NCBI GenBank assembly: GCA_964016885.1
Contig: OZ024745.1
Coordinates: 94,054,001 to 94,118,000 of the forward strand
Origin: Eledone cirrhosa
Lineage: Eukaryota
DNA length: 64,000 nucleotides
Direction: 5' to 3'
In this document: positions 7,105-27,769 of the stretch, piece after piece
How positions within the stretch are numbered: position 1 is the first letter of the stretch
How the letters are laid out: each line of letters starts with the position of its first letter
The notes under the pieces: generated by a model
The model's input: only the letters and a program-made list of their open reading frames with translations
What the model was told of the DNA's origin: nothing
Databases searched by the model: none
Program-made: the position numbers and the translations under genes

Positions 7105-7258
7105 GTTTATAGATTTTGAGAACTGCATTGTAAAGGGATTGAAGAAGAAATCTTATGAGGTCCTTTGTGTCATAACTGGTGTTATCCACCCTGTAGCAGA
7201 TCTGAAGATAATCAAGCAGAGCACACTAACGGAGGATGGTAAAATCAAAACCGCTGTG
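7105..7258 (+). CDS. GSDME: Gasdermin E-like gene, internal exon A (pore-forming domain)
   Basis: ttttgttgtttcAG acceptor, GTaagt donor; 154 nt (1 + 51 codons) reading FIDFENCIVKGLKKKSYEVLCVITGVIHPVADLKIIKQSTLTEDGKIKTAV. EVLCVIT resembles the EVLCVLT strand of vertebrate GSDME as I recall it. The symbol means GSDME-like; orthology is untested. Confidence 0.8.
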
Positions 7259-8267
7259 GTAAGTTTAGTTTTTAACAAACTGACAAATTTAGATGTATAT
7301 ATCGGGCAGCGAATTGGCAGTCATCAAGATATTGGATAGAAAGCTTTACGGTATTCGTCCCACCTCATTGTGCGCTCTTAGTTCAAATCTTGCCGTGCTC
7401 AATTTTGCCTTCCATCCTTCCGAGGTTAAAAAAAAAGTACCAGTCCAGTACTGGGGTCATTTCTTCCTCTATAGAAAAAATTGACTGTGTTTAAACTTGG
7501 AGAAGGTTGGGCTCCATCAGGTTTAAAAGTGCCCTAGACACACCATATGATGGTGCCTCTATGACTCCACAAGGAATTATGGGATCTTTATCCTTTTTTT
7601 TATAGACCCATATACAATGTTTATGTATAATAAACATACATATGAAAGCAAGTCAACAATTAGAATGGATGAATGGAGGACAGTCAAATACAGTAAATAA
7701 ATTTGTCAGTTATATATATAGATGTTTGATTCTTGCAAGAGTAGACAAAAGGGAAGTGTATGTATTGATATATATATATATACATGCTTGATGCTAGCAA
7801 GAAGAGGACCCTTGAAATCACTGTTAAGTCTTTTGAAGGAGATCTGAGTTACCTTAATTAATTAGTTGTTTGGTTTATGTAAATATTTGAATTTAATTTG
7901 TGAATGGATTGAACAGTTGCTATAAATCTGCTCAATGGTGATAACAAGGGCATCCAGCTGTAGAAAGCTTGCCAAACAAAGAGTTGGGAAGACTCTTCAG
8001 TTGTGTCAAGATCATGACATCACTTGTTCTAGTGCACTCAGTAGAGCATGAGACTGTGTGTAAGTGAGATATAGACCCACCCCCTGCCTGACTGGGAGGT
8101 CAGTAGCCCCTCTTTAGTACTGACTTGGTCTATGTATACCTGTCAAACCCCTGCCAGCAGGGAAAGGAGACATTAAACAATGATGATGTACCATCAGGGA
8201 ATTTTATCATCTTTTATTTTAGAACATTTTGTAGATTAAACTAATAAATAAATTTTTTATTCATTAG

Positions 8268-8510
8268 TCTTCTTCTTCTTAACCCACCTATTCCCGAGAG
8301 GGTCATGGGGGCAGAGACCTCAAACACTCCTTCCAGTGGGTCCTGTCAGAAGCAGGTGTCTCAAACTGATCTGGCTGGATCCACAAGCGAGACCAGCCCA
8401 GCTCATGGATGTTATCCAACCATCTTGCTCAGGGTCTACCTCTGGGTCTCCTGCTGATTGGTTTTTGCCCATAAAATCTGTCCAGTGATTCTTTCCTGAG
8501 ACATTCTAAC
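8268..8510 (-). mobile_element. 3' end of a second RTE family with (AAG)n tail
   Basis: Minus strand reads RRPRGRP*ARWLDNIHELGWSRL...LRSLPP, then a short UTR ending in aagaagaag. Confidence 0.65.
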
Positions 8511-8892
8511 CACATGAAAAAATGTTTTCTTGAGAGATAGAAACTTGATCTTGAATGCCTCCAATATTGATTGAGTTTCCGTCTCCACCATTTCTCAATT
8601 TGATAAGTTACAAGAGAAGATAGTAACTGACCTGTCACCCTCTCTAAGGGTTGCGCTGATAGCATATTTAGATACATCTTCTATTTCTAATGCTTTATTG
8701 TTATCGATATCAGCACAAACATACACAGCAATGTCATGATTTATTGATTTAAGAGGGAATAATTCTTTTTGAAAAATTTGTGTCCTGTGATAGTAGTAAG
8801 TGAAAAGACCTATCATATGTTTTAGAGATTTACTATTTGATGGAGGATTAACTAGCTCACATGAGATTCTACACAAGTTGGATCATGTAGAA

Positions 8893-9440
8893 ACATCATC
8901 ATCATCGTTTTACGTCCATTCTTCCACGCTAGCATGGGTTAGATGGGTTGTCCTGTTGTGGGCAATTCCAGGTCAGGTGACCATGTTTTGCTCATACAGA
9001 ACTGATTTTGACTTGATTTCTACAGCTGGTTGTCCTTCCTAACACCAACCTGATTTACAGTGAGTACTGGGTGCTTTTTTGCTGTGGCGTCCACACGACC
9101 ATTTGATAGTGTGAACTGGGTGTTTTTTTTGTCGTGACACCTCCACAACCGCTTTACAGTGGGAGAGGGGGGGGGGGGCGATACTGTCTATATGCTCCAG
9201 CTTTGGCTTGTACCTGTTGGAAGTCGGGTCTTCTGTATTACTGCGTAAGGCCAGAGGTCGCGGTCCTGTGTCATTGCCTTTGAGAGGTGCAATTGGGCAA
9301 GATTGGCTTTTATCACCTCATCCCAGATCTTCTTGGGTCTCCCCACTCCAAGGCTTCCATCAACTTTGAGCGCTCAGCACCTTTTTATGCAGCTGTCAGC
9401 CTTCATACGCATCACATGTCCATACGAATGTCCAAACAAT
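8893..9440 (-). mobile_element. RTE 3'-end fragment
   Basis: catcatcatc tail and close similarity to 18295-18805. Confidence 0.85.
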
Positions 9441-10063
9441 TGGTAAAAAATTGTCCAACCAGAGTCTAGATAAATTTGAAACTGAATAAACTGTTTTTTC
9501 TTGATTAAATGTAAACCCTATTTCATGAGCTACTTCTATTAGTCTACCATAACAGCATTTGTGTTCATCTTGAGCATTTTTAGCAATGGCAATGTAACCC
9601 AAATAAACAAAAGTACTGCCCATTAAGTATTCATTGATGATTTTGTAAATCACCCACTGCAGTTTGCCAGTGCCTGTATTATAGGATAGGTTAAATTACT
9701 AATCCAATCCAAGGCCTTCTCACTCCTCTTGGTTGAACCCCCTCCTTGGTTGACCTCTACCACATTCTGTTTGGTTTTGGTCATGTCAGGGATGTAGCCA
9801 TACTCACCACGCTTGACCAATTGGGGGCTGGTGAGGCTATTTAACTGATAGTTGGGGTGGATGGCCATTGAGTCTGAGGAGTTCAGCTGCCCCTTTTTTA
9901 CAGCTCTTTTGTTTTTTGCACTCCCAGGGTTCAACTTACCCTCCTCACCAAATGATATAAATTCTTTAATCATTACAAATGTTCTTATTTCATTTTTCTA
10001 AATAATTTTGTTTTTTCCAAAAGGGTGACAAATGACTTTATTAAATTTTTAATTTCTTTATAG

Positions 10064-26144: not shown

Positions 26145-26532
26145 GTCTCTGTCTACACAATTTCACTCACAAGGCTTGTGTCAATCCAAGACTATGGTAA
26201 TCCATCTACTAGGCTTCCATGCAGTCTCTGTCTTCACAATTTCACTCACATGTCTTGTTTCTTGTGTCAATCCAAGACTATGATAATCCATCTACTAGGC
26301 TTCCATGCAGTCTCTGTCTACACAATTTCACTCACAAGGCTTGTGTCAATCCAAGACTATGGTAATCCATCTACTAGGCTTCCATGCAGTCTCTGTCTAC
26401 ACAATTTCACTCGCAAGGCTTGTGTCAATCCAAGACTATGGTAATCCATCTACTAGGCTTCCATGCAGTCTCTGTCTTCACAATTTCACTCGTAAGGCTT
26501 GTGTCAATCCAAGACTATGGTAATCCATCTAC
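26145..26532. repeat. 79-bp tandem repeat, ~5 copies
   Basis: Unit gtctctgtctacacaatttcactcacaaggcttgtgtcaatccaagactatggtaatccatctactaggcttccatgca. Confidence 0.92.
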
Positions 26533-27069
26533 CTATAACTCCCAAGGGAATTGTAGGGGTGCTGTATTGACATACTGTGTTTCTAGGGCATTTTAAAACC
26601 TGGCAGTCCATCTCTCCAGGTCTTAATACAGCAGATTTCTTTTAGAGGAAGAATCAACCCCAGAATTAGACAGGTTTTTTTTATTGACCCCAAGTGGATG
26701 AAAAGTAAGATGTAAAGAATCTTGTATGCAAAGAATTCTTAATTAAAAATTTCCCTCATGGCTCGGGGAAAACATTTTTTTTTTAAGAATATGAGGAAGA
26801 GTTGGCTGCTATTTCTAGCAGGTCGGGTGACTATCCATGTTTTGGTGTAAGAATACTTGAGTTTGAAAGATGAATGAACAAAGTAAATTAATGAAAAAGA
26901 ATGGAAGAGCTATATGTTTAATGTTGAGGTGAATGTTTAATATAAATCTGTAATAAGGTGATTTGTTATAGCTATATGTTTAGTGCTGATGTGAATATGA
27001 TTCTGTAATGTTTAGTGTTGAGGTGAATATAATTATGTAATAAAGGGATTAGAATTGAAAGATAATAAT

Positions 27070-27245
27070 TATTTCTACTTTTGGCACAAGGCCAGCAATT
27101 ATTCCAGTGTATTACTGGTACTTTATTTTATCAACCCTGTAAGGATGAAAGGCAAAGTTAACCTCGGCAGGATTTGAACTCAGACCACAAAGGGCCGTAA
27201 CTCTTTGCTGCAAAGCATGGTGTCCAATCCTCCACCGATACTGCC
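27070..27245 (-). mobile_element. tRNA-derived SINE
   Basis: ttggcagtatcggt..gagttcaaatcc..gcctttcatcc..agtagaaa consensus; 17-bp TSD aattgaaagataataat. Other copies at approx. 4510-4700, 7305-7460, 11210-11375, 14755-14930, 14940-15125, 53160-53350 (+) and 48685-48865, 60600-60790, 60798-60960, 63280-63430, 63564-63960 (-). Confidence 0.85.
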
Positions 27246-27550
27246 AATTGAAAGATAATAATGAAAATTATTGTGTACAATGTTCCGGTGCACTACAATT
27301 ACATCAGAAAAGATAGCTAAAAGTGCATGATCCCTAATTGTGATACCAAGTGATCCCTAATTGTGATATCAAGTGATCCCTAATTGTGAGTGTACATGCT
27401 GATACCAAGTGATCCTTAGTTGTTAGTGTACATACTGATACCAAGTGATCCCTCATATCAAGTACCAAGTGATCCCTAATTGAAATTGATATCTATAGTT
27501 TAGTTTTAGTAGATGTGATATTCATATAGTGTATTCTATTTATTTCACAG

Positions 27551-27769
27551 TTCAGCAGCAGTCTCATGAAGAAGGATATTGAAAAGGATGTTGTCGTGCC
27601 TCTCTTAGAACATGATTGGGCCTTGAAACTTCTCTTCTGCCTTGGCTATGATCTTACTGACGTGAAAAATTCTACCATTGTCTCACCTAAAGAAAGCTTC
27701 AAAGCTATCGAAGCTATTGGTAAAATTCTTTATGGTCTTTTTATTTTACCCTTGGAGGTAAATAAATAA
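27551..27769 (+). CDS. GSDME: Gasdermin E-like gene, probable terminal coding exon
   Basis: tatttcacAG acceptor, phase 0: FSSSLMKKDIEKDVVVPLLEHDWALKLLFCLGYDLTDVKNSTIVSPKESFKAIEAIGKILYGLFILPLEVNK*. ILYGL resembles the terminal helix of gasdermins (TLNGL in GSDME); A-rich sequence with AATAAA follows. Confidence 0.7.
   Translation, partial: FSSSLMKKDIEKDVVVPLLEHDWALKLLFCLGYDLTDVKNSTIVSPKESFKAIEAIGKILYGLFILPLEVNK

Follow-up and report, generated by a model that had tools for sequence, protein, structure and literature searches.

An intact gasdermin E-type gene of the octopod Eledone cirrhosa, orthologous to Octopus GSDME

A window of 64,000 bp of Eledone cirrhosa DNA (contig OZ024745.1, positions 94,054,001 to 94,118,000; window positions are used below) holds six short exon-like segments between positions 7105 and 27769. 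A first-pass annotation took them for a hidden six-exon gasdermin gene, akin to GSDME or pejvakin (PJVK), and for a candidate cephalopod executioner of pyroptosis. Is there an intact gene at this locus, which kind of gasdermin does it encode, and how would the protein work? We find an intact gene here, and its product is a gasdermin of the E type, orthologous to Octopus GSDME. In the reading that we consider probable, this seven-exon ortholog encodes an autoinhibited protein that would be cut after DVLD251 by an effector caspase and would then form pores and lyse the cell.

Gene structure and transcript

Each of the six window exons begins behind a pyrimidine-rich AG acceptor, exactly where the first-pass annotation had drawn its boundaries, and the five internal donors are all GT (GTAAGT in four, GTAATT in one). 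Joined, the exons make 973 nt with a single open frame of 323 codons and a sole terminal stop, so the proposed stop-free frame of about 320 residues and the matching phases hold; the two other frames contain 36 and 26 stops. The sequence motif quoted for the end of the pore-forming domain and the terminal ILYGL are both present. A tblastn search of the window and 200 kb upstream was made with the Octopus sinensis protein XP_029658425.1, which matches all six exons at 72-83% identity (E 3e-15 to 1e-32). Because these matches are colinear, a chance origin of the six exons is ruled out.

Residues 140-464 of the O. sinensis protein fall on the six window exons in order; the match to residues 1-140 lies 58.2 kb upstream, all of it in one exon. 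This exon, which the first-pass annotation had expected beyond the window, opens with the ATG, and its GT donor has phase 2, in keeping with the phase of exon 2. Thus, the count of six is right for the window and wrong for the gene, which has seven coding exons, a CDS of 1392 nt encoding 463 residues, and intron phases 2-0-1-0-0-0. The features are as follows, with the evidence in brackets.

Contig positions 94002446-94002864, + strand, outside the window: coding exon 1, 419 nt, residues 1-140 (tblastn, 80% identity, E 1e-71)
1..7104, + strand: 3′ end of the 58.2-kb first intron (exon 1 located by tblastn and genome search)
7105..7258, + strand: coding exon 2, residues 140-191, pore-forming domain (splice sites, tblastn, spliced contig X1)
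10064..10268, + strand: coding exon 3, residues 192-260, last part of the pore-forming domain plus linker (PF04598 match, tblastn, spliced contig X1)
10232..10243, + strand: DVLD (residues 248-251), then Ser, predicted effector-caspase cut site (DxxD conservation, alignment to amphioxus D253)
15644..15756, + strand: window exon between coding exons 3 and 5 (splice sites, tblastn, C-terminal profile comparison)
21707..21832, + strand: coding exon 5, residues 298-339 (splice sites, tblastn)
24013..24168, + strand: coding exon 6, residues 340-391 (splice sites, tblastn)
27551..27769, + strand: coding exon 7, residues 392-463 and stop (splice sites, tblastn)
27770..28100, + strand: likely 3′ UTR, AATAAA at 28062 and 28081 (from the length of contig X1)

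The last exon is present in four runs of one study (X1-X4), whose kind, RNA or other, is not recorded. In run X1, a 2172-nt contig spans exons 7105-7258 and 10064-10268 with 0 mismatches and lacks the 2805-nt intron between them, the joint being at GT..AG. The whole gene has six junctions, of which this one, 7258/10064, is directly seen; it is absent from runs X2-X4, which cover the intron. With the remaining exons as modelled, the length of the contig leaves 449 nt before the ATG and places its 3′ end at 28100, just past the AATAAA at 28081. By this arithmetic, the contig is consistent with a full transcript of the gene.

The introns contain LINEs and tandem repeats. It is because the exons are short and the introns carry such elements that a track of open reading frames misses the gene. 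A genome-wide search with XP_029658425.1 gave seven matches among 11 scored candidates, all of them exons of one locus, and the PF04598 search of the genome led to the same single locus only. No paralog was found by these exon-by-exon searches, which would miss a divergent copy.

Pore-forming domain, repressor domain and position in the family

With coding exon 3 as the query, three longer proteins stood among 22 candidates, the top one being XP_029658425.1 (464 aa, 85% identical). The whole E. cirrhosa protein is 82.5% identical to both Octopus proteins, XP_029658425.1 and XP_014790989.1, over 463 residues, with 82-84% in both domains; no identical protein occurred among the database matches. 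PF04598 covers residues 1-247 of XP_029658425.1 (84.8 bits, E 8.4e-24), and in this protein and its four closest relatives it matches at residues 1 to ~250 with E values of 1e-20 to 3e-27. Single exons are short pieces, below the sensitivity of Pfam: only exon 10064-10268 among the six in the window matches PF04598 (E 1.3e-4, 22 bits, under the 25-bit cut-off), and coding exon 1 alone gives no Pfam match at E<=0.01. The spliced E. cirrhosa protein itself scores 96.7 bits over residues 1-250 against an HMM built from 16 GSDME rows of vertebrate type and 208.7 bits over residues 1-454 against an HMM of 44 non-cephalopod rows, where the best of 200 shuffles reaches 8.8 and 4.5 bits, respectively. 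The best PDB sequence matches of XP_029658425.1 are GSDME N-terminal structures (E 9e-13).

A structure model was made of XP_029658425.1, not of the E. cirrhosa protein, from a 54-row alignment (pLDDT 75.8, pTM 0.47). The N-domain of this ortholog model matches gasdermin pores at Z 16.4-17.7, and its C-domain matches the isolated C-domain 5wqt at Z 14.0 (179 residues, rmsd 3.3). Foldseek with the model returned 29 matches at E<=0.001; among the matches listed, all are gasdermins. Against full-length gasdermins, the whole-chain rmsd is 12-16 Å, and at a pTM of 0.47 the modelled packing of the two domains is tentative. The gasdermin identity proposed at first is borne out by the PF04598 match of the ortholog, the HMM scores of the protein itself, and the fold; the proposed cephalopod origin holds as well.

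The C-terminal half comprises 204 residues encoded by four exons. Against an HMM of 28 other invertebrate tails, it scores 36.3 bits (E 2.5e-11; best reversed control E 0.015). HHalign gives 97.5% for cephalopod against invertebrate tails and 98.3% for invertebrate against vertebrate tails, and the direct cephalopod-vertebrate comparison is blank (0.7%). PF17708 (Gasdermin_C) has no match in the seven cephalopod proteins scanned, and most of the other invertebrate-type rows do not reach its cut-off either. Taken alone, neither the cephalopod nor the vertebrate profiles reveal the internal repeat of the tail. Judged by these profiles and by the ortholog model, the C-terminal half is a genuine gasdermin repressor domain, though a divergent one.

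This bears on the question of pejvakin, whose N-terminal domain is homologous. PJVK is described in parts of PMC8742441 and PMC10155998 as being without the last three repressor exons. The hallmark of pejvakin, loss of these exons and a short tail, is not found in the E. cirrhosa protein. Since PJVK lacks the repressor exons and a full repressor domain is encoded here, the protein is GSDME-type and not pejvakin, which is what the first-pass annotation had concluded from the tail.

The N-domain tree has 52 rows: the E. cirrhosa protein and 51 of the 54 aligned relatives, three near-identical rows of the cuttlefish cluster having been dropped. The E. cirrhosa protein groups with the published Octopus proteins and with the Sepia cluster in a coleoid clade (support 100/100); it branches outside the three Octopus rows, and Argonauta branches earlier. 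In the free tree, the coleoids and a long scallop row join vertebrate GSDME (96/94). We do not accept this grouping as a finding, since the stems concerned are both long and, over 24 rows, the data do not reject a tree in which the molluscs form one clade (p-AU 0.457).

The closest known proteins, which form one clade with that of E. cirrhosa, are O. sinensis XP_029658425.1, Octopus bimaculoides XP_014790989.1 (A0A0L8I419) and Sepia pharaonis CAE1327994.1. RefSeq models of the ortholog exist for both Octopus species. In the S2 Table of Wang et al. 2023 (PMC10155998), XP_029658425.1 is named GSDME, with phases 2 0 1 0 0 0, as in Lottia; the intron phases of the E. cirrhosa gene, which comes from another octopod species, are identical. 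Of two surveys from 2022, PMC9355259 includes the O. sinensis, O. bimaculoides and Sepia gasdermins in its Fig. S4, alignment and accession table, and PMC8742441 gives O. bimaculoides gsdm and its synteny. Therefore, the first-pass question of whether the gene is already annotated is answered by yes for the ortholog, and the gene adds one more ordinary member to a known family without extending its range.

The protein shares with the tested invertebrate GSDMEs (abalone, oyster, coral, hydra, and amphioxus BbGSDME) the two-domain layout, a DxxD in the linker, the basic β1-β2 loop and the conserved Thr. It differs from them in its short linker and in the Val that octopods have at a conserved Pro, and its identity to abalone, bivalve and brachiopod rows is only ~21-23% (12-19% in the tail). 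With vertebrate GSDME (DFNA5), it has in common the gasdermin fold of both domains; however, the N-domain is encoded by three exons instead of four, the linker is ~30 residues shorter, and the tail goes undetected by PF17708.

Predicted cleavage and pore formation

DVLD251 and its following Ser stand directly after the GGF that ends the pore-forming domain. A DxxD occupies the same place, with both Asp invariant, in 11 of 11 coleoid rows, several of them near-identical and thus representing few independent lineages; of the 39 non-coleoid rows that could be scored, 23 have a DxxD at some point of the linker. D251 aligns with amphioxus D253, at which cleavage yields the active N253 fragment (PMC10155998, in part), and DxxD is given as the effector-caspase consensus in a section of PMC9355259. 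The residue after the DxxD is Leu in the three Octopus species and Ser in E. cirrhosa. Effector caspases disfavour Leu at this position. In the ortholog model, the DxxD sits at a segment of low confidence, residues 250-258 (pLDDT<50). Caspase-domain genes are present in the genome, with 27 matches among 29 candidates, their caspase type not assigned.

Among the residues that matter in amphioxus or human GSDME, as taken from portions of PMC10155998, F2, K38, K42, K125 (human K120) and T218 (human T215) have been tested in relatives and are kept here. The basic residues present are K38/K40/K41/K42, K125 and K153-155.

We propose that the C-terminal domain would hold the 463-residue protein inactive and that an effector caspase of the caspase-3 type would cut after DVLD251, freeing the N-terminal domain. 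The basic loop, residues 38-43, may bind lipid, and the freed N-domains may oligomerise; the predicted outcome is pores in the membrane and lysis of the cell, in pyroptosis during infection or stress. Since the DxxD is aligned, the key residues are mostly kept, and caspase-domain genes are present, this usual gasdermin working is likely. Autoinhibition, cleavage at D251, lipid binding, oligomerisation and pyroptosis are all expected by analogy with tested amphioxus, coral, abalone and vertebrate relatives, and it is by the same analogy that we infer the role of pyroptosis executioner. Passages of PMC12122919 and PMC10679943 report GSDME pyroptosis in coral, oyster, abalone and hydra, and in the latter abalone GSDME-NT kills HEK293T cells. 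For cephalopod gasdermins, our literature search, with subscription journals mostly outside its coverage, found survey tables only and no functional study.

Could pore activity have been weakened or lost in octopods, so that the protein would serve in some non-lytic way, as has been argued of pejvakin, or make only small, sub-lytic pores? This seems unlikely to us, and several features invite the thought. The conserved Pro at position 215 is Val in six of six octopod rows, and it is kept in 5/5 decapod-type, 18/28 other invertebrate and 15/16 vertebrate rows; the human GSDME mutant P212L was weakened, according to a portion of PMC10155998. Yet the same Pro is also missing in 10 of those 28 other invertebrate rows. 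The second membrane hairpin is highly charged (fraction 0.46 vs 0.35 and 0.23), against an invertebrate maximum of 0.59, while the length and hydrophobic alternation of both hairpins are about within the range of other gasdermins. A second DxxD, DGDD112, lies inside the first hairpin and could allow an inactivating cut, and the stem branch is long, at 1.33 changes per column. On the other hand, neither the basic loop nor K125 nor T218 has been lost. In the three Octopus species, the DxxD is followed by Leu, which would also fit a loss of activity; the DxxD itself is nevertheless kept across octopods and decapods, and Ser follows it in E. cirrhosa.

A pore-forming gasdermin might instead be activated by some other protease, be it an inflammatory or initiator caspase, a granzyme-like enzyme or one from a pathogen, and not by an enzyme of the caspase-3 type at D251. 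In amphioxus, distinct caspase homologs cut GSDME (PMC10155998, in part). The short linker, with 33-34 residues between the reference columns vs medians of 41.5 and 64, and the unassigned type of the caspase-domain matches agree with such a route. We nonetheless think it very improbable, given that the DxxD has the effector-caspase form, lies in the low-confidence segment of the model and is invariant in the coleoids. Lastly, several invertebrate relatives bear the automatic name "pejvakin-like", which would favour pejvakin proper. The probability that the locus is such a gene, or a pseudogene, or a chance set of exon-like scraps is negligible: the frame is open, spliced and 82-84% conserved in both domains, and the spliced contig, the C-tail profile comparison, and the structural match of the C-domain refute it.

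Meaning for cephalopod gasdermins

An autoinhibited gasdermin E cut after DVLD251 thus remains our preferred reading. It is tempting to speculate, at rather long odds, that the octopod gasdermin has been retuned to a weak or non-lytic pore through its very short linker, highly charged second hairpin and Val for a Pro that human GSDME needs for full activity, and that the genus Octopus has further lost the good caspase site, which E. cirrhosa, Argonauta and the cuttlefish-type copies have kept. If this were true, retuned octopod gasdermins would be a natural series for pyroptosis tuned down inside one animal group.

Mollusc gasdermin linkers are said in one passage of PMC9355259 to have no evident caspase site, and invertebrate DxxD sites are called conserved in part of PMC11508797. 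The plain DxxD right after the pore-forming domain in all coleoid rows contrasts with the former remark. The finding is of modest importance: the gene is a clean, expressed model for work on pyroptosis in cephalopods.

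Organization of exon 1

A single exon (G000:C5:94002446-94002864 of the Eledone genome, upstream of the window) encodes gasdermin residues 1-140, whereas human gasdermins use two exons for the equivalent region. Unnamed proteins of 139-144 aa (P0012, P0021, P0025, P0079, P0093 and P0094) start at the first Met and stop near the residue-140 point, and the intron phases of the Lottia gene are those of the octopod gene. Since these short proteins end alike and the Lottia phases are equal, it is likely that the one-exon arrangement is general in molluscs.

Intron content and caspase-domain genes

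Minisatellites were noted in introns of the gasdermin gene, and LINE sequences in the window.

Window 11437-13373, minisatellite in a gasdermin intron, 36-bp unit, 54 copies, 98% match
Window 23407-23895, minisatellite in a gasdermin intron, 48-bp unit, 10 copies
Window 26145-26532, minisatellite in a gasdermin intron, 79-bp unit, 5 copies
Window 18582-21608, minus strand, LINE open frame of 1008 codons with endonuclease, reverse transcriptase and a PHD-like finger
Window 400-3619, plus strand, LINE copy with endonuclease and reverse transcriptase domains and frame breaks, within intron 1
Window 40760-45728, minus strand, LINE copy with the same two domains and frame breaks

The 1008-codon frame is inside intron 4, on the strand opposite to the gene, with about 100 bases between it and exon 5, and its length suggests a young insertion. 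The two broken copies are related to each other; a Pfam search of the 524-codon upstream frame of the copy at 40760-45728 returned no match.

Elsewhere in the genome, many caspase catalytic domains are single open frames without introns (contigs C1, C2, C3, C8, C14, C28 and others), with several clustered on C28 and on C8. Near-full-length intronless matches make up 18 of the 27 caspase-domain matches.

Conservation and internal similarity of the repressor domain

Comparison of the coleoid orthologs (P0001-P0008) shows slightly better conservation in the repressor domain than in the pore domain, at 84% versus 82% identity to Octopus and 59% versus 54% to the cuttlefish cluster. Between phyla this order is reversed, the repressor domain being the more divergent.

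When the two halves of this domain were compared in 28 invertebrate gasdermin C-terminal domains, relatives of that encoded at window 15644-27769, HHalign gave 91% (E 1.1e-6, 75 columns), against 0.3% for a reversed control. Such likeness was not detected in the cephalopod profile alone or the vertebrate profile alone. In the model of the Octopus sinensis ortholog (P0001), the second half of the domain resembles PUB domains in structure (2hpl, Z 7.1). The PUB likeness is already published (10.1101/187211); neither "duplication" nor "repeat" appears in that paper, and we do not call the duplication new on the strength of one literature search. The invertebrate gasdermin repressor domain may have arisen long ago when a PUB-like unit was duplicated.
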